Virus record (IMG/VR): IMGVR_UViG_3300030372_003529
Coordinates: 1-32,450 of that record
Strand: one strand, 5' to 3'
From: a virus
Taxonomy: Duplodnaviria > Caudoviricetes
DNA length: 32,450 nucleotides
This document shows positions 22,324 through 32,450 of this stretch, piece after piece; the stretch's first letter is position 1; every line of letters begins with the position of its first letter. The notes under the pieces are model-generated. The model searched no databases, had not been told where the DNA came from, and worked only from the letters and a program-made list of their open reading frames with translations. The translations under genes were made by a program, and so were the position numbers.

Positions 22324-22608
22324 TTAGAATGGTAAGTCGTCATCTACTAATGACTCTTCTACAGGTGCACTTACCTGTCCGTTATTAAAAACAAACTCTT
22401 TACCATTCCCTACAAAGTTTTTAGGTGTTTTTGCTTCACGCTCCTCTTTGCTTTGAGATTCAAAAACATAATGAGTGTCACCATATTGGCTTTCACCATC
22501 CATGTTTTCTGCTACAGTTAGATTTGCATAAGTTCCTTTTTCACCTTTATAGAACTTTGATTTGTCGAGTTTAGTTACATCAACTTTTATATTGATTATT
22601 TTACCCAT
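22324..22608 (-). CDS. ssb: Single-stranded DNA-binding protein (small type)
   Basis: Acidic C-terminal DDDLPF tail; GEKGTYANL and FVGNGK segments; adjacent to a putative annealase. Confidence 0.7.
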   Translation of the reverse strand: MGKIINIKVDVTKLDKSKFYKGEKGTYANLTVAENMDGESQYGDTHYVFESQSKEEREAKTPKNFVGNGKEFVFNNGQVSAPVEESLVDDDLPF

Positions 22609-23161
22609 TCTGATTTTCCTTTACTTGTCTGTTTAGTTTATTTATATATTTACTTGCTTGTTCTGAAGTCAATCCCTCAAAACTTATAGGTCTTTTGACA
22701 TTAGCCTGTAATTCAAGTTGCATTATAAGACTACGTTGTTTTTCAGAAGATGGTTTATCTTCCTTCTCAACTGGCTTTTCAAACGCATCTGCTTCAATCT
22801 CAGAGTATATCTGATATTCATACGCATTTATAAGTTTTAGGGTTAGCCTATCCTTTAATCGTTTTTCAGCCATAGCATTCATATAAGGCATCTTACAGTT
22901 AGTAGGGTTGGCTTCACCATTAGACCATTCAGTCCTATCTCCAAGCGTAGCAGAGCCATACAACGTAACATTGGGTGGTGTAGTACAGCTTAGTTCTGGA
23001 TTAGGCATATCAAATATAATCCCTTCCTTGTAAGCAATACGCTCACAGGCATCATGGGTTAATATCCACATAGACCTGTTCCCACGTTTCATTTCCCAGA
23101 AATCATCTTTAGTAAGATTGTATTTCTCTTTTATCTCTTTTAGTCTGTCCACATTAGACAT
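22601..23161 (-). CDS. Putative single-strand annealing recombinase (Sak/Rad52-like)
   Basis: WILTH...GEA...YMNAMAEKRLKDR...IYSEIEADAF and C-terminal SEKQ motif; upstream of ssb; start MSNV at 23161. Confidence 0.55.
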   Translation of the reverse strand: MSNVDRLKEIKEKYNLTKDDFWEMKRGNRSMWILTHDACERIAYKEGIIFDMPNPELSCTTPPNVTLYGSATLGDRTEWSNGEANPTNCKMPYMNAMAEKRLKDRLTLKLINAYEYQIYSEIEADAFEKPVEKEDKPSSEKQRSLIMQLELQANVKRPISFEGLTSEQASKYINKLNRQVKENQNG

Positions 23162-23342
23162 TGTAAATCTCCTCTGCTTTACATCCAAGTTCTTTACATA
23201 GTTTGGCTATATAAATACCACTTGGTTGTCTGTGATTGTTAATCCAGTAAGAAAAAGCAGTATCTGACACCCCTACAAGTTTTGCAAGAAAACTATGTTT
23301 TACGCCTTTCTTACTGACTATTTCTTTTAAGTTATTTTCCAT
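23154..23342 (-). CDS. XRE/Cro-family HTH regulator
   Basis: NNLKEI...LAKLVGVS...YWINNHRQPS...KLCKELG. Confidence 0.85.
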   Translation of the reverse strand: MENNLKEIVSKKGVKHSFLAKLVGVSDTAFSYWINNHRQPSGIYIAKLCKELGCKAEEIYNV

Positions 23343-23556: not shown

Positions 23557-24357
23557 TTATTTTGTCTTAACATTAAGAACCAACTGTTCTTCAGGCAATG
23601 CCCTATGATTATAAATATCATGTAGCATTTGAATATGACCTATTTGCCTATCTCCAGAGTCATAAATTCTGCCCTTATATCTTTTTGCTTGTTTTATCAT
23701 ATGTGCAGTATTATATCCTTTTCTTGCAACGCATTTCGACAAGGCTCTTAAAAAGTTTGTCTTATAGGAAAAATCCATATATTCATTAAGGTCTGTTGCG
23801 TGTCTGATTGTTTTATTGCCCAAATCCAGAGTTGTAATTCTCCATTCACCAGACTCAAACATACTTTTTCTTACAGAACACGCTAAATCGCAACTATATA
23901 TTTCATATAATGCAGGTATTGCAAACTCGGTTTCTTCCCATACATCATTTAATTTAATATAGTCTGGTGATTTATGATAAACAACTCCATTGTTTAGATA
24001 GTCTTCTGGTTTCCATTTCTTTGGAGTAATATTAAGCCAAATCATCAACTCATTCTCTGTCATGCCTGTTGACTTAATATCCACAATGTTAGCAGTAATA
24101 GAAAAATGGTTCTCACGAGCCACTTTTATTCTATGGTTACCATCAATCGCCAAATATTTAGTCCCACTTTTTACCAACGTGGGTGATGTTAATACACCAT
24201 TTCTTGTCATAGAATCTCTTAAATCCTTTAATCCAGATGGAACAAATCTTCTGTTCCAATCTGGAGTAATTATATTTGAATAGTCATGGATGACCATAAT
24301 GCTTTTAACATGATTGTTATCACAGGGTGTTTTTAACTTTATTATCTCGTTTTTCAT
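23557..24357 (-). CDS. ParB/Srx N-terminal domain protein
   Basis: NR...LRDSM..NGVLTSP...AIDGNHR...NITPKKW; likely start MKNEII at 24357 (AGGAG RBS). Confidence 0.75.
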   Translation of the reverse strand: MKNEIIKLKTPCDNNHVKSIMVIHDYSNIITPDWNRRFVPSGLKDLRDSMTRNGVLTSPTLVKSGTKYLAIDGNHRIKVARENHFSITANIVDIKSTGMTENELMIWLNITPKKWKPEDYLNNGVVYHKSPDYIKLNDVWEETEFAIPALYEIYSCDLACSVRKSMFESGEWRITTLDLGNKTIRHATDLNEYMDFSYKTNFLRALSKCVARKGYNTAHMIKQAKRYKGRIYDSGDRQIGHIQMLHDIYNHRALPEEQLVLNVKTK

Positions 24358-24530
24358 TCGTACTCCTTTTTTGTGTAATATTTGTTCAGACAATCCAAAC
24401 AAACTTCTATTGTACCTCGTTTCATTCGAGGATATTTAACTTCATAGTGACTCTCATTATCGCAATCATTACATTGTCCATATTGCCAAGTCCAGAGAAT
24501 CCTAATTTTAATTTTTAGTGGCTCATACAT

Positions 24531-25697: not shown

Positions 25698-25853
25698 TTA
25701 TAGCTCCTCCTTTAAGGTTTTAACGTCATCTTGTAAAGTTTTAGTCGCAAATATAATACTATCATTTATATCTGATTGTTTTTTCTGTTGACTTTGCAAC
25801 TCTTTAACATTTGATTCTATATCGGTTAATAGTTTTAGTATTACGTTATCCAT
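25698..25853 (-). CDS. Small coiled-coil protein (51 aa)
   Basis: MDNVILKLLTDIESNVKELQSQQKK...; TAATG-coupled, GGAG RBS. Confidence 0.6.
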   Translation of the reverse strand: MDNVILKLLTDIESNVKELQSQQKKQSDINDSIIFATKTLQDDVKTLKEEL

Positions 25854-26122
25854 TATTTACTCCATTTATGAGATTTGCGATTTGCTTTTAATTCCAGAAC
25901 AGAATTACAATTTATAGTACGGAATCCATTTTTCATCTCGAATACAACCATGTTACCTACAGACTCTGGATTATACTTTAATCCCTTACCCTTAACACCT
26001 TTAGATACACCTTTACGAAATACCATCTTGCGTACTGAACCATCTTTTTTTACAAACCTAACAGAACAGATACGACCTCTGGATTGGTTTATAACGTCTA
26101 TTACTTTTTCTACTTTATTCAT
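25853..26122 (-). CDS. SH3/Sm-like beta-barrel protein (WYL_2/DUF2693-like)
   Basis: SVRFVKKDGSVRKM...VVFEM..GFRTI; first gene behind the leftward promoter; AAGGAG RBS. Confidence 0.65.
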   Translation of the reverse strand: MNKVEKVIDVINQSRGRICSVRFVKKDGSVRKMVFRKGVSKGVKGKGLKYNPESVGNMVVFEMKNGFRTINCNSVLELKANRKSHKWSK

Positions 26123-26153: not shown

Positions 26154-26183
26154 AACTTATTAACTATTGTTTACCTAAGTCAA
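26154..26183 (-). promoter_or_regulatory. Leftward early promoter with operator
   Basis: TTGACT-18 nt-TAAGTT on minus; operator 26160-26173 abuts the -10 box. Confidence 0.65.
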
Positions 26184-26249
26184 GTATTATTTTCACTTTT
26201 GTTAAAGTTTTTTTAATCTATAGAGGAGAGAAATATATTTCTTTGTGGT

Positions 26250-26434
26250 TAATTTTAATCTGTTGTATATTTTCAACCCTTATTCGTTTGGGTACTACGC
26301 TTTTGGGGATAAGGATATAGAAATTGGCTACCAAAAGATGACGACAAAGCCAGTAAGGTATTCCGAAGTAGATAACGCCTGTCGTGGTACAGAATCACCT
26401 GTAAATGAATCTGCCAACTTTAGATTGTGAATTG
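26250..26434 (+). ncRNA. Candidate highly structured ncRNA with three loop-mediated pseudoknot or kissing pairings
   Basis: A closing stem, four internal stems and three long-range complementarities were found by eye; many G-U pairs work only on the + strand. Confidence 0.6.
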
Positions 26435-26585
26435 ATACTAAAGTTACTTATATACTGCATGGGCTCGGCTCGGTAGGTAAAGTAGAGGGTTCTCCGTCTT
26501 ATATTTATATAGGATGTAGGGATTCCTCTACCTATTCCAACATTAACTCTCTCAATAGGTAAAGTAGTTTTAAAAGTATAAAGGG

Positions 26586-26658
26586 AAATTATAATTCAAA
26601 ATTATAAGTAAAAAATATAATTATAAAAACATGTTCAAAATTATAGGCATAAATTATA
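26586..26658. repeat. AT-rich tract with five AATTATA copies
   Basis: Copies starting at about 26587, 26600, 26619, 26639 and 26652. Confidence 0.55.
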
Positions 26659-26932
26659 ATTTTAAGAAATTCCAGAAAAATAGCCTCACTTTTCGGTGAA
26701 AATCGACTGAAAAAATCCAGATAAAAAACACGTCAAAAAACATTTAGTTGTATTATGCAACTATGACTATTCAAATCATGTGATGTAATTCTGACTATTT
26801 TGTGATTTACATTGTATAAAATACCCTTCAAATCTGTAAAAATAGCCTAAATTTACATTAATTTACAAGTTAACCAGATACACACCATAAAACCAAATTA
26901 ATTAATTTTTTAATCAATTGTTAATTTTTTAC

Positions 26933-28933: not shown

Positions 28934-29611
28934 ATGACTAAATTAATAGAGAACCCACGTAAGGCACATGCTGCTGAGATATACGCATTAAATCCTGATA
29001 TTACTGCACAAGAAGTAGCAGACCAATTACAGATGAATGTGCGTACTGTGGTGAGTTGGAAGAAAGACCCTAATTTTATAGATGCTATATATGAGAGGTA
29101 TATGGTTGAGTTTGGTGGGGAGCTTCCTGCTGTGCTTAATGCTATGGTAAGAGAAGCTAAGTCTGGTAATGTACAGGCAGGTAGATTGGTATTAGAGCAT
29201 AGTGGTAAATTAGTTAAGAATGTTAATGTAACTGTAGATTCGCCTTTTGAAAAATTTATGAAGAAGATAGAAGTTGCTGATGTTGTTGATGGTGAGATTG
29301 AAGATGTGGTAGTTAATGAAATCATAAATGAGATTCCAGAAGAAGTGGTAGATTTATCTACCTTACCTGAACGTAATACTGAAAGTCAGAAGATGCGTGT
29401 TACTAATGAAAAGCGTAAGGTTAAGAAAGCTATTAAATCAGAAAAGCAAAAGGTTAAATATTTAAATCAGCGTAAGAAGTGGTACAAATGGAAGAAACGT
29501 GCTGAAGCTGTAGGAGTAGAACCATTATCTGCTAAACGCCCTACTAAAGGTCAACGTGTAGCATGGCAAGAAGAAATAGTAAGGAGAGAGAATGAAGAGA
29601 AAGACTCGTAA
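28934..29611 (+). CDS. terS: Putative terminase small subunit (N-terminal HTH)
   Basis: ITAQEVADQLQMNVRTVVSWKKDPNF HTH followed by AKSGNVQAGRLVLE, typical of phBC6A51-type small terminases; AGGAG RBS. Confidence 0.65.
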   Translation: MTKLIENPRKAHAAEIYALNPDITAQEVADQLQMNVRTVVSWKKDPNFIDAIYERYMVEFGGELPAVLNAMVREAKSGNVQAGRLVLEHSGKLVKNVNVTVDSPFEKFMKKIEVADVVDGEIEDVVVNEIINEIPEEVVDLSTLPERNTESQKMRVTNEKRKVKKAIKSEKQKVKYLNQRKKWYKWKKRAEAVGVEPLSAKRPTKGQRVAWQEEIVRRENEEKDS

Positions 29612-29753
29612 GGAATTAGAAGTAGAAATGCAGGAGCTTAGAGTACAGTTAGCTTCTTATAATACTTTGTTTAGTCTATATGTAGGGTATAAAGGTGATT
29701 CGGCTGAATTTCAAGCGTATCTAAAGGATAAAATAGGCAAAGCTAATGGTTAA
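29592..29753 (+). CDS. Hypothetical protein (53 aa)
   Basis: MKRKTRKELEVEMQELRVQLASYNTLFSLYVGYKGD...; AAGGAG RBS. Confidence 0.65.
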   Translation: MKRKTRKELEVEMQELRVQLASYNTLFSLYVGYKGDSAEFQAYLKDKIGKANG

Positions 29754-29901
29754 GTGCTATAATTGTGGTACAGAAATGATTTGGGGTAATGATTTTGACT
29801 TTGAGGACTTCGATTATGAAGGTAAAGGTGTAGTTTCCTGTTTTACTTGCCCTAAATGTGATACCTACGCTGAATTTGTAGTGCCTATGAAATCCCCATA
29901 A
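29746..29901 (+). CDS. 51-aa Zn-ribbon protein
   Basis: MVKCYNCGTEMIWGNDFD...FTCPKCDTYAEFVVPMKSP. Confidence 0.7.
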   Translation: MVKCYNCGTEMIWGNDFDFEDFDYEGKGVVSCFTCPKCDTYAEFVVPMKSP

Positions 29902-30142
29902 GCTGTATATCTTCTTCATCTAAGTATTCACACATACTTCTGTAAACTTCTTCTGTTATCTGTATATCGCCATCCATGCCTTCAAAGGATGTTTCTACTA
30001 TAGGCTCTACATTTAATTGTATATTGTCTAATTGGGATTGCATTGAGGAGAGTTTGTGAGTTAATTCTACCTGTTGAGTGAATATCAAGGTTAATACATC
30101 TCTAATTGCCTGTATTTCCCTAAAAAGCTTAAATATCTTCAT
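29885..30142 (-). CDS. Hypothetical protein
   Basis: GAGGT RBS; last gene of the terL-portal operon. Confidence 0.65.
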   Translation of the reverse strand: MKIFKLFREIQAIRDVLTLIFTQQVELTHKLSSMQSQLDNIQLNVEPIVETSFEGMDGDIQITEEVYRSMCEYLDEEDIQLMGIS

Positions 30143-30150
30143 GCTACCTC

Positions 30151-30549
30151 CTATAAAGCTTCATCTATTGCTTTTAAAAGCTCTTCTGTTAGCTTGTCTT
30201 GTTCTTCTTTGTCTATCTTAATAAATTCTCTTTGAGTATTCTTCCCAAACCCATCATTATGCATTTTACCATAGTCAAGCATATGCAGACCTTTTGAGTT
30301 GCCTTTTATGCTTTTATATAAAGCTCTTGTTTTGTAAAGTGGTTTTTTGCCATACTTAGCAAATTCAGCTTTAGTCCTTGAACGAGGTTTCTCTTTTGTA
30401 AGAGGTGGTAATACTTTACCTTTTTTAAGCATTTCTCTTGCAGTTTTAGCAGCAGCTTTGTAAACGCCAGTATCCATCTTCTTTTTAATCTTTTTATACT
30501 TTTTTAGAAGATTAGGAAAACTGAAGTTAGTTTCTATTACTACCTTCAT
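30151..30549 (-). CDS. Virion morphogenesis/neck protein-like
   Basis: PLYKTRALYKSI...YGKMHNDG...REFI resembles the Mu gpG/P2 gpS-type virion morphogenesis motif. Confidence 0.55.
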   Translation of the reverse strand: MKVVIETNFSFPNLLKKYKKIKKKMDTGVYKAAAKTAREMLKKGKVLPPLTKEKPRSRTKAEFAKYGKKPLYKTRALYKSIKGNSKGLHMLDYGKMHNDGFGKNTQREFIKIDKEEQDKLTEELLKAIDEAL

Positions 30550-31841
30550 TCTTTTTCACCACTCATAGCTTGTAGATGTGGGTCTTCCATAGCTTTTCTG
30601 TTAGATGCTATTATGGATTCGGCTTCTTCTCGTGTTAAATCTTTATTATACTTCATTAATAGCCCTTCTTCATCAACCATGTGATGCCTAAGCATATGCT
30701 CATCAAGTAATATCTGGTCTTGAACTGTTTTTGGATATTCTGGCTCATTAAAATCAATTTTTAACTCTTCAGGAAGAGAAATATTGTTGTATTGTGCAAT
30801 CTTTTTCTCAATTTCGTATAAATCATGCTCATACATGCGATATAAGTCTAAATCATCTTGATAATCTTCAAATCTCTCTAAGTCTTTAATCTTGAGTGCA
30901 ATCCCTGATGGAGTTTCTCCACCATCTTGAGCAAATTGCACATATAGATGATTATTCTGGGCAACCAAGTCTAATTGGAACTTAACTGACTCAATTACTG
31001 CCTGAATATCCCCTTCAGGAGCAGCAATACCAAAAGTAGAGCCTTCAGGCAAGTCAAGTATTGTATCGCTCCCTGCTCTTTCTAATTTTTTATCTCCATA
31101 CATTCCTGTAATGAATGGCTGACCAAACATCTGGAATCGTAAACCTAATTGAAGCTCTGTCATTGTAATATTTACCTGCTCATTACAGCTAACAATGTCA
31201 TTTGCTCCCTCTACAAAGAAAGAATCAACCTGCTCTTCTCTGTGAGAGAATAAAAATGGAATTACTCCATATCCATGCTCATATTCAGACATTATATTGC
31301 CATCTTCATCGTAATGAATGTATCTTTTATCATCCCAATACGCATATTGCAGTTTTTCTGTATTTGAAACATCATCTACATTCATTAAAATAGGATATGT
31401 AATTGCTACAGGGGTGAAGGGGTTCTCGTGAAGATGCACATCGAAGTAATACACAGGTCTGTAATCAAAGCAAGGGTTTGGGAGGTCATCACGATAAACA
31501 ACCTGTGTAGCAACAGAACCTACAAGACGAGTCATTCTTTCTACATGCTTCATTTTAACATCTTTTTTGCGAGTTAAGGAGGAGTACGAATCGCTCACAT
31601 TACGAGAAGCCCCTACAGTATAAATTCTTGACATTTTATTAATAAATCTTCGAGTAAAGTTTGCATTATACAAGGGAATTTCTCTAAAAGCATCAGCAGA
31701 AAAGTAATCATCAATATACTTATCTGTTTCTGTGCCTGTATAGTAGTCAAGAAGCTTGCGAATCTCGTTTCGTCTTTCTTTTGCTATATGCAGTTTATAT
31801 TCTTTAATTGACTCTTGTATGATGTCTATTGGATTCATCAT
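30546..31841 (-). CDS. Portal protein (SPP1-like)
   Basis: 431 aa, directly after terL; DYYTG, EHGYGVIPF, SGIALK and LKIDF motifs. Confidence 0.88.
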   Translation of the reverse strand: MMNPIDIIQESIKEYKLHIAKERRNEIRKLLDYYTGTETDKYIDDYFSADAFREIPLYNANFTRRFINKMSRIYTVGASRNVSDSYSSLTRKKDVKMKHVERMTRLVGSVATQVVYRDDLPNPCFDYRPVYYFDVHLHENPFTPVAITYPILMNVDDVSNTEKLQYAYWDDKRYIHYDEDGNIMSEYEHGYGVIPFLFSHREEQVDSFFVEGANDIVSCNEQVNITMTELQLGLRFQMFGQPFITGMYGDKKLERAGSDTILDLPEGSTFGIAAPEGDIQAVIESVKFQLDLVAQNNHLYVQFAQDGGETPSGIALKIKDLERFEDYQDDLDLYRMYEHDLYEIEKKIAQYNNISLPEELKIDFNEPEYPKTVQDQILLDEHMLRHHMVDEEGLLMKYNKDLTREEAESIIASNRKAMEDPHLQAMSGEKE

Positions 31842-32450
31842 CGTGAAATTACTCCTAATTCTCGTTGTCTAATTGGAAATCTGTTTAAAAAGAAATATCT
31901 AAAAGCATCCATTGAATGGTCATGCCTTCCATCTTTTACAGGGTCAGGCTTCAAGTCTTTGCCTTCTCCTGATTCAGGGTATCTGTAGTTTTCTAAGTCT
32001 TCTGCAAGCCCCATACATTTCTTATCTAAGTGTACAAACCTTTGCCCTTGTGCATTTTCTATGAAACCTCTAACATGGGTTGTACCTGATGCTATGTTTC
32101 GTGAAACTTTATCTCTTATGCTTTTTACATGTATGCCTTTACGCCTAAAAATTTCAATATCACCTAATCCTGATTGTCCCTGTGCTTGCATACCTGCAGG
32201 GTCGCCATAATACTCTCTAACAGCATATCTTTTTTCTTTAATCATTTCAGCAAATTCATCAGTTTTGATATTTTGTTTATGTACAATCTCATCTATTACA
32301 TTTATATGAACTAAACCACCCACAACATATGTCTGAAACCATAAAGCTGCAGGCATTCTATAACCAAAGTCTATTGAGCAAAAAGTTGGATAATTCGGAT
32401 TATAGGGAAATTCACCCATGTCAAGATTCCTATCAAAAGGATAAACTCTG
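31838..32450 (-). CDS. terL: Terminase large subunit, C-terminal RNase H-like nuclease part
   Basis: SIDFGY, YYGDPAG, DHSMDAFRY; continuous with 797..1 through the terminal repeat. Confidence 0.95.
   Translation of the reverse strand, partial: RVYPFDRNLDMGEFPYNPNYPTFCSIDFGYRMPAALWFQTYVVGGLVHINVIDEIVHKQNIKTDEFAEMIKEKRYAVREYYGDPAGMQAQGQSGLGDIEIFRRKGIHVKSIRDKVSRNIASGTTHVRGFIENAQGQRFVHLDKKCMGLAEDLENYRYPESGEGKDLKPDPVKDGRHDHSMDAFRYFFLNRFPIRQRELGVISR
32352..32449. repeat. Terminal direct repeat, copy 2
   Basis: Identical to 1-98. Confidence 0.97.

Follow-up and report, generated by a model that had tools for sequence, protein, structure and literature searches.

What is encoded in the gap between the leftward early operon and the rightward gene block of a marine-type tailed phage, and how may it act? 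The window, by which we mean the whole stretch of DNA that was analysed (32,450 bases), is a virus record that is 95% complete, has 34% GC and overlapping ends, and carries genes for capsid, tail, lysozyme and both terminase subunits along with ParB-like, Cro-type HTH, RusA-, NinB- and HNH-like genes. A preliminary description had placed in this gap a multiply pseudoknotted phage non-coding RNA of ~190 nt (26250..26434) on the + strand, of no recognised family; this much has stood, with no match in Rfam, and all the segments which it quoted are present where it put them. The boundaries had to be moved, as the element extends to about 26567. The predicted gene is now ~290 nt long (26276-26567, + strand) and is preceded by a conserved sigma70-like promoter (Table 1). 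What had been overlooked is the hairpin H4, the ~50-nt hairpin P5 and the ~32-nt direct repeat flanking P5; the 3' module made up of P5 and the two repeat copies is the most distinctive part. That the RNA itself is real is close to certain, and its architecture is new.

Table 1. Features of the RNA gene and its immediate surroundings in the window
Feature	Position	Strand	Remarks
89-aa gene	25853..26122	-	divergent; phrog_2267; look-alike of WYL_2 (Sm-like SH3 barrel)
Predicted promoter	26243..26271	+	-35 TTGTGG at 26243-48, 17-nt spacer, -10 TATATT at 26266-71
Predicted transcription start	about 26276-78	+	from promoter position
H1	26278..26314	+	26278-85 with 26307-14; own-versus-cross z 15.7 (26 representatives)
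PK1 kissing helix	26300-06 with 26331-37	+	CUUUUGG/CCAAAAG; z 8.4 (26 representatives)
H2	26323..26354	+	26323-29 with 26348-54; z 12.6; loop holds PK1 3' strand and PK2 5' strand
PK2 kissing helix	26341-46 with 26380-85	+	p<=5e-5 (18 representatives); two-sided change in 4/6 pairs (5-homologue alignment)
H3	26368..26414	+	26368-73 with 26409-14; p 0.09 in fixed windows, p<=5e-5 in parse-anchored windows
H3b (within H3)	26388-92 with 26399-403	+	covaries; missing from short subgroup
H4 hairpin	26417..26444	+	26417-27 with 26433-44; two-sided change in 11/11 pairs (model-fitted alignment); missing from short subgroup
Repeat copy 1 (R1ext)	26445..26484	+	core AGGTAAAG at 26475-82; G-rich, weakly self-folded; proposed guide
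P5	26482..26531	+	~50-nt irregular hairpin with conserved purine-rich 3' strand; z 11.0 (26 representatives)
Repeat copy 2 (R2ext)	26529..26567	+	core at 26557-64; A for copy-1 G; mostly unfolded
AT-rich block	26582..26668		three imperfect 35-nt repeats with iterated AATTATA, origin-like; window's subgroup only

Collection and distribution of the copies

The copies of the RNA gene were tracked by pattern scans and iterated nhmmer, which gave a first-round set of 39 distinct sequences including the window. The working set, drawn from viral and metagenome contigs, has 51 distinct members of 219-300 nt, with 26 representatives below 80% identity; a further member (L501) was read and left out of the 51. 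The covariance model built from five close sequences alone recovered divergent members, and L325 was added for a second model. The yield of the pattern scans was mostly chance, with real loci at 1/13 and 3/67, 6/34 in the metagenome scan and 0/38 in cellular genomes. The L223-type and L274 model matches, as well as L296, L288 and L330, fall within coding sequence and were rejected as members.

Another search was anchored on the small terminase protein and was independent of the RNA motif; the best 80 of its 247 loci were kept. In 21 of these relatives the full 8 kb upstream of the small terminase gene is available, and 20 of the 21 have the RNA there. Nine of those 20 loci are on contigs absent from the earlier set. 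By this search the gene is single-copy and near-universal in the clade, and it is placed 2-8 kb from the small terminase gene, at the early operon. The one record without an RNA match (L475) is a fragment, 31% complete. The members L321 and L325 belong to two unrelated GC-rich phages, and the L321 record (62% GC) has only a methyltransferase and an Erf-like protein in common with the clade, so that the RNA is found in phages with almost no proteins in common. In this abundant clade of uncultured, marine-type phages it is a core gene, and it has also crossed into unrelated phages.

No copy was found in cellular genomes, either by the pattern scans or by the covariance model against 151 Marinimicrobia genomes and 5 others. 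Portal homologues of 27-29% identity occur in 3/201 Marinimicrobia genomes, which names no host; blastn against cultured phages gave short chance matches only, and tblastn with the capsid gave 25-27% identity among the matches listed. Within 28934-32419 of the window the small terminase gene (+ strand) runs towards the large terminase and putative portal genes, which are on the - strand, while the head-tail block returns to the + strand.

A short subgroup of about 220-245 nt (L290, L286, L303, L300, L348, L314, L320, L278, L309) is without H3b and H4. It retains PK1, PK2, P5 and the two repeats, and TATAAT is found in its repeat cores. Three phages of this subgroup have in their early operon a homologue of SpoVG, a nucleic-acid binder (L348, 3300-3584), which is a possible host hint. 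Separately, an early pattern brought up a hairpin-rich stretch (L032 500-650, also L038 and L055) that is unrelated to this family; in L032 it has no Rfam match, and it is possibly another structured RNA.

Structured core of the RNA

A folding energy better than shuffles, which the preliminary description had proposed as a check, was not obtained for the window (nested MFE z -0.21 on the + and -0.08 on the - strand); a single sequence alone is therefore no evidence, and the homologues decide. When 5 close homologues were aligned with MAFFT, without fitting to the structure, pairing was seen in 94.5% of 238 cells and two-sided change in 20 of the 50 pairs, a level reached in 0/500 shuffles, so that the covariation looked for among homologues is present. 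Two-sided change is seen in 36/37 pairs of the model-fitted 29-sequence alignment, which leans towards the structure. Global MAFFT misaligned the helices of divergent members, and the own-versus-cross pairing tests of Table 1 were done on thinned representatives with a null that ignores the tree.

The stems H1 and H2 covary as formerly proposed, and so does H3 with its inner H3b, the p value of H3 depending on whether the windows are fixed or anchored. The choice of the + strand from G-U pairs is upheld by 15 G-U against 3 A-C in 234 H1/H2 cells. The overlapping ORF 26245-26430 is unconserved: 18/18 representatives have stops in every + frame (3-5 for L001). The closing stem P1, in contrast, finds no support (p 0.28), as its 5' arm (26250-65) falls in the promoter spacer, which separates the -35 from the -10 box, and the bases of its 3' arm are used by the covarying H4, with which P1 is mutually incompatible.

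Three loop pairings had been drawn on these stems. Covariation bears out PK1 and PK2 but not PK3 (p 0.47; 0.03-0.48 in another run). PK1 has 7/7 Watson-Crick pairs in 50/51 sequences, with 7 sequence variants; its apparent invariance came from the pattern searches, which demanded it, and the terminase-anchored search lifted this bias and gave most of the compensatory variants. PK3 is unsupported because loop U2 changes without a change of the facing linker A. The H1 loop contains, besides the 5' strand of PK1, a near-invariant GUUUGG (26286-91) as candidate third strand, of which U3 and U4 are invariant in 51/51 sequences. Loop U2 is lost in all 4 sequences (2 lineages) in which PK1 pair 4 is not U-A and is kept in 45/47 others; L459, with PK1 pair 3 altered and the loop unchanged, is an exception to the pattern. 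By analogy with the telomerase and SAM-II pseudoknots, this is suggestive of a U.A-U major-groove triplex on PK1, which may fit the loop U's better than PK3. Telomerase RNA is known to contain a U.A-U triplex.

The kissing helices may also be read as contacts between molecules, by which the RNA would oligomerise through PK1 and PK2 into a ring or cage like pRNA, ROOL and GOLLD; the preliminary description had considered an oligomer of the pRNA kind. Their covariation fits intra- and intermolecular pairing alike, and in ROOL and GOLLD kisses first taken as tertiary proved intermolecular, according to the part of PMC12286853 that was consulted. However, the H1-H2 linker is 4-11 nt in most members, which makes an intramolecular kiss possible, and together with the constant loop lengths it suits an intramolecular fold; 2-8 kb separate the small terminase gene from this gene, which is located at the early operon, and an oligomer would leave the repeats unexplained. 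We consider such an assembly very unlikely.

Repeat-hairpin-repeat module

After H4 follow repeat copy 1, P5 and repeat copy 2, and the repeat unit starts at the ends of H4 and P5. The best direct repeat of the region falls at these two places in 39/39 first-round sequences, 65-92 nt apart, and the later-found members carry it too; L333 and L350 are among the few in which it scores no better than shuffles. Over the 26 representatives the unit has a mean of 32 aligned nt with 77% identity and ends in an 8-nt core, where the copies are identical at 169/176 positions. The part upstream of the core is lineage-specific (own score 17.1 vs cross 10.4). Close relatives alter both copies at the same base, and the change is concerted in every lineage.

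The differences which remain between the copies have a direction. G in copy 1 against A in copy 2 is seen 60 times vs 1 reverse in the 26 representatives, and 37 vs 0 among 13 sequences below 66% identity, and the bias is also present in the GC-rich phages L321 and L325. T/C vs C/T stands at 12 vs 7 (p 0.36). Wobble-compatible differences outnumber the reverse in 25/26 representatives, while 118/190 of the mismatches are not wobble-compatible. When copy 1 is paired with the complement of copy 2, the duplex energy has a mean of -29.1 kcal/mol vs -19.6 for the reverse, and it is lower in 26/26; copy 1 folds on itself at -5.2 vs -2.0 kcal/mol for copy 2. Only one strand is able to pair with both, namely the minus-strand copy of repeat 2, which matches copy 2 perfectly and copy 1 through wobble pairs; it is the proposed target of copy 1.

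No consistent partner of the repeats was found within the RNA (linker-linker p 0.95; linker 1-core 2 p 0.09), and the motif is not enriched elsewhere in 11 genomes. An alternative helix is possible between the P5 5' arm and the first block of copy 1 (p 0.0004), and it explains this block only. P5 has a mean of -24.7 kcal/mol and at least 4 T in the following 8 nt in 6/26 only, for which reason an intrinsic terminator was rejected; it is not a canonical one. Some other roles of the repeats were set aside: a cis switch with copy 2 displacing copy 1 on an upstream strand is weak (p 0.02, then 0.09), self-complementary repeat kissing is rejected (p 0.45), operators or iterons elsewhere in the genome are not enriched, and -10 boxes or Shine-Dalgarno mimics fit some lineages only.

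Concerted change could be produced without a guide, if template-switch gene conversion across the P5 inverted repeat kept the repeats alike and position-specific selection acted on them, with the function lying in the core and P5, which would bind polymerase or ribosome. Mosaic alleles are seen, and the setting is suitable, since slippage is promoted by phage annealing proteins and by a strong hairpin set between direct repeats. But all 51 sequences retain both repeats and P5 with no deletion product, and conversion alone gives no 60-to-1 direction, which makes this explanation decidedly unlikely in our view.

The two copies may otherwise be one binding site presented twice, once masked by a hairpin and once exposed, spaced by P5, in a trans-acting decoy which titrates a host or phage RNA-binding protein or nuclease while the core gives stability. 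The near-identity of the 8-nt cores, the folded state of copy 1 and open state of copy 2, the resemblance of the core to the phages' own ribosome-binding sites and the occurrence of the RNA in phages with almost no common proteins speak for it, and a phage RNA that mimics an antitoxin has reportedly been published (PMC3475682). On the other hand, a site of ~32 nt that shifts by single bases among close relatives requires an equally fast-changing protein, no neighbouring protein is constant, and the GGA which CsrA requires is missing from most cores. The probability of a decoy is taken as low.

The layout of the repeats also recalls a template. The core could be a ribozyme or the scaffold of a host reverse transcriptase acting at the repeats, either by excision of P5 or with an A-B-A' template as in DRT2, DRT10 and telomerase. 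Invariant nucleotides in the core agree with this, as does an A-B-A' layout downstream of a stem, as in DRT10 (PMC12632851) and DRT2 (PMC12039810), both in the portions used here. Against it, RVT_1 (PF00078) was found in 0/11 records, the window and 10 relatives (control positive 3/14; a very divergent reverse transcriptase could escape this search), a copy-1 cDNA is disfavoured from realigning onto copy 2 by the direction of the wobble, the repeat spacing is divisible by 3 in 7/26 only, and there is no ribozyme family match. Activity of this type appears highly improbable.

Promoter, expression and neighbouring genes

A promoter-like match is present in the 5' flank in 32/39 loci vs a shuffled mean of 7.5 (max 16), and on the minus strand beyond R2 in 3/39 loci. 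A stricter promoter scan of the window did not list the promoter at 26243-26271. In an RNA run from a seawater metatranscriptome (X1), one 174-nt contig, which was found together with the window stretch, covers the core at depth 3.2 with 90-95% likeness to the window; the flanking genes are uncovered and the contig shows neither strand nor ends, so it is a hint only. The sole leftward promoter match in the window (26840-26811) is within chance (2 found, 6.4 expected). A leftward promoter-like TTGACT-18-TAAGTT at 26154-26183 (-), unlisted by the scan, points toward the early operon and is divergent from the RNA promoter. L234 and L016 have the RNA in common and not the promoter.

The Sm/SH3-like product of the neighbouring 89-aa gene had been suggested as a partner of the RNA. 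It falls in atlas clusters in which 22-67% of members carry PF10902, so that WYL_2 is a lead, but a WYL_2-like gene adjoins the RNA in 4/39 loci only, which does not favour this partnership. Across the 39 loci no neighbouring protein is constant; the usual neighbours are a ~200-aa family including Sak-like annealing proteins (25/39 loci), initiator, HTH and SSB-like proteins. In the slot of the Sak-like/Erf-like annealing proteins the window has a 195-aa protein (22604-23188, -) with no Pfam, PHROG or NCBIfam match, which clusters with the Sak-like ones and is a candidate new annealing-protein family. Tyrosine integrase was found neither in 5 complete relatives nor in the scanned ORFs of the window; the ParB-like gene (23557-24402, -) makes a plasmid-like prophage state possible.

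The nearest downstream ORF is convergent on the minus strand in 38/50 loci with enough flank, some of these being the antisense frame or chance ORFs. The minus strand is stop-free over at least 90% of the RNA in about 9-10 of the 26 representatives, and its frame beats dinucleotide shuffles (p<=0.05) in 14/26; the frames fall in all three phases and show no protein conservation across subgroups. In several loci the antisense frame has its ATG 13-45 nt before core 2 and its stop no more than 25 nt from the next ATG ORF. In L275, L257, L287, L283, L329, L350, L306, L340, L058 and L431 the antisense frames run for 90-140 codons without a stop, and they often end close to the following early gene. 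The window is without such a filler frame (longest 56/96 codons, p 0.16) and its layout is divergent; over the loci the filler frame and convergent layout have no significant association (p 0.41).

From the stop-free frames in 10/26 representatives it may be argued that the functional molecule is a minus-strand mRNA leader or an overprinted small protein, the + strand fold being its mirror image. The excess of G-U over A-C pairs in H1 and H2 and the + promoter in 32/39 loci contradict this, as do the variable phase of the frame and its lack in the window, and we hold it to be extremely unlikely.

The comparison of L001 with the window concerns the exchange of alleles. Their flanks are 93% and 97% identical, while the RNA after PK1 is 70% identical (window 26314-26565 vs L001 1835-2080), from which it follows that alleles are exchanged as a block.

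Proposed mechanism

We tentatively propose, as possible rather than probable, that the RNA is an antisense-type controller of early genes in which one repeat serves as guide on a knotted scaffold. The RNA would be transcribed rightward where the early replication/recombination operon begins. H1, PK1, H2, PK2 and H3 would lie next to one another in a compact fold, with U.A-U triples from GUUUGG as the probable lock, and this core may stabilise the RNA or bind a conserved host machine. Copy 1 would then pair with the complement of copy 2, with G.U where copy 2 has A, most likely in a leftward mRNA crossing the locus; the pairing site would lie just past the start of the antisense filler frame, where this frame exists, and for the early genes downstream, pairing may uncouple translation or end transcription. 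By changing jointly, the two repeats would give rise to specificity groups, as in the P1 C4 and P4 CI RNAs, where such groups arise from jointly changing guide and target sites.

Pairing of copy 1 with the complement of copy 2 by wobble fits the 60-to-1 direction of G/A. The wobble excess in 25/26, the duplex energy in 26/26 and the concerted change count in favour of a guide, as do the lack of a partner within the RNA and of motif enrichment in the 11 genomes, the convergent ORFs in 38/50 and stop-free minus frames in 10/26, and the L001 swap, which is as expected of an exchanged specificity allele. Several observations count against it. The window has no filler frame, a divergent layout and a leftward promoter match within chance; filler frame and layout are not associated, the T/C class is weak and 118/190 mismatches are not wobble-compatible. 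Self-folding is stronger in copy 1 than in copy 2, so that the G's of copy 1 may be there for a local hairpin. Why an RNA that is antisense over its full length should need a second site is not obvious, the evidence for transcription is one contig at depth 3.2, and since there is no integrase in the 5 complete relatives, a role in immunity is hypothetical.

The same pairing could take place on DNA. Copy 1 would then invade the template strand of copy 2 during the passage of RNA polymerase and form an anchored R-loop, as a ColE1 RNA II-like primer, a pause or a self-targeting guide, with the core binding polymerase or a helicase loader. This would explain the concerted change and the G/A bias in cis without an antisense transcript, and it covers the window too. 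The gene is single-copy, near-universal and beside HTH, Sak/Erf annealing, SSB and initiator genes, an AT-rich iterated block lies downstream in the window, and priming by the persistent hybrid of ColE1 is a precedent (PMC5043065, in the part consulted). Yet most of 15 pieces have no GC-skew switch at the locus, a gene often has its end less than about 30 nt from core 2, a wobble hybrid has to outcompete a perfect DNA duplex, and the iterated block is restricted to one subgroup. Taken singly, the R-loop is unlikely; the two readings on the opposite strand, antisense mRNA and R-loop, jointly hold about half of the weight.

In the wider form of our proposal this would be a new phage RNA class, in which a triplex-locked double-kissing scaffold carries a guide that reads the opposite strand of its own gene by wobble, and the duplicated repeat is a co-evolving, exchangeable guide/target allele. 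Specificity would be switched by RNA, through antisense control, an R-loop or a self-targeting guide, and no dedicated phage protein would be needed in hosts that range from 30% to 62% GC. We put this picture somewhat short of an even chance.

Significance

Only a few known phage non-coding RNAs are as large and complex, and several RNAs that were once orphans have turned out to be guides, templates or cages. The natural variants suffice for a covariation-backed structure, and the RNA is a ready cryo-EM target. From the asymmetry of the repeats one would expect pairing between copy 1 and the complement of copy 2, and rescue of mutations in one repeat by mutations in the other. If true, this would be a further way in which a single gene carries a guide along with its target, and exclusion or compatibility between marine phages may have a basis here.

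Comparison with known systems

The literature searched has no description of this RNA. In the parts consulted, it is not described in PMC12286853, in the preprint 10.64898/2026.09.22.753630 or in PMC2864571, the last of which lists the C4 antisense RNA family RF01695. Six motif spellings and six contig names were unmatched in the part searched of PMC10690425 (10,006 candidate viral RNAs), where a fragment may be listed unnamed. Rfam 15 gave 0 matches at the gathering threshold in the window and in 6 loci (3 of them family members), none to RF01695 in the window, and unrelated sub-threshold matches only in E-value mode (window and ten other members tested overall). ARAGORN found 0 tRNA/tmRNA genes, and there is no conserved + strand ORF as tag frame.

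The pRNA of phi29 is likewise a phage RNA with complementary loops; the present RNA differs in belonging to a tailed phage with large and small terminase, in its early location and in having two kisses and extra domains. The SAM-II and SAM-V pseudoknots, common in marine bacteria, resemble it in a U-rich loop across a U-A-rich stem. Here, however, the PK1 purine strand has no unpaired U for a SAM pocket, and there is no constant downstream gene and no Rfam match.

The P1 C4 and P4 CI RNAs may work in a like manner, as phage RNAs at the early operon with repeated targets that change with the guide and a small ORF coupled to downstream genes. They are ~80 nt long and on the same strand as their targets, whereas this RNA is ~290 nt with a double-kissing core and has its complement on the opposite strand only; a guide complementary to targets in the same transcript was not found, the repeat having no consistent in-strand partner. 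ROOL, GOLLD and OLE are larger than this RNA. Together with raiA they are alike in being large structured RNAs of orphan function with covarying kissing loops (PMC12286853, part consulted), and they differ in that ours has no Rfam match, another topology and a twin-repeat 3' module. ColE1 RNA II, as given in the part used of PMC5043065, is also a promoter-driven structured non-coding RNA, and like it the phage RNA could pair with its own template strand; ours is about half as long, is without an RNA I partner, has a 32-nt wobble-biased internal repeat, and would belong to a putative origin only.

The DRT2 (PMC12039810), DRT10 (PMC12632851) and telomerase RNAs have in common with it, as far as the parts consulted go, a pseudoknotted scaffold and a repeat-flanked segment bounded by a stem, and with telomerase RNA also the probable U.A-U triplex. 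They differ in that no reverse transcriptase was found here in 11 genomes, the asymmetry is the wrong way for realignment and the spacing is not codon-phased, the repeat unit length being divisible by three in 7/26 only. In its layout, the A-B-A' template of DRT10 and DRT2, as presented in those parts, is the closest to the RNA described here.
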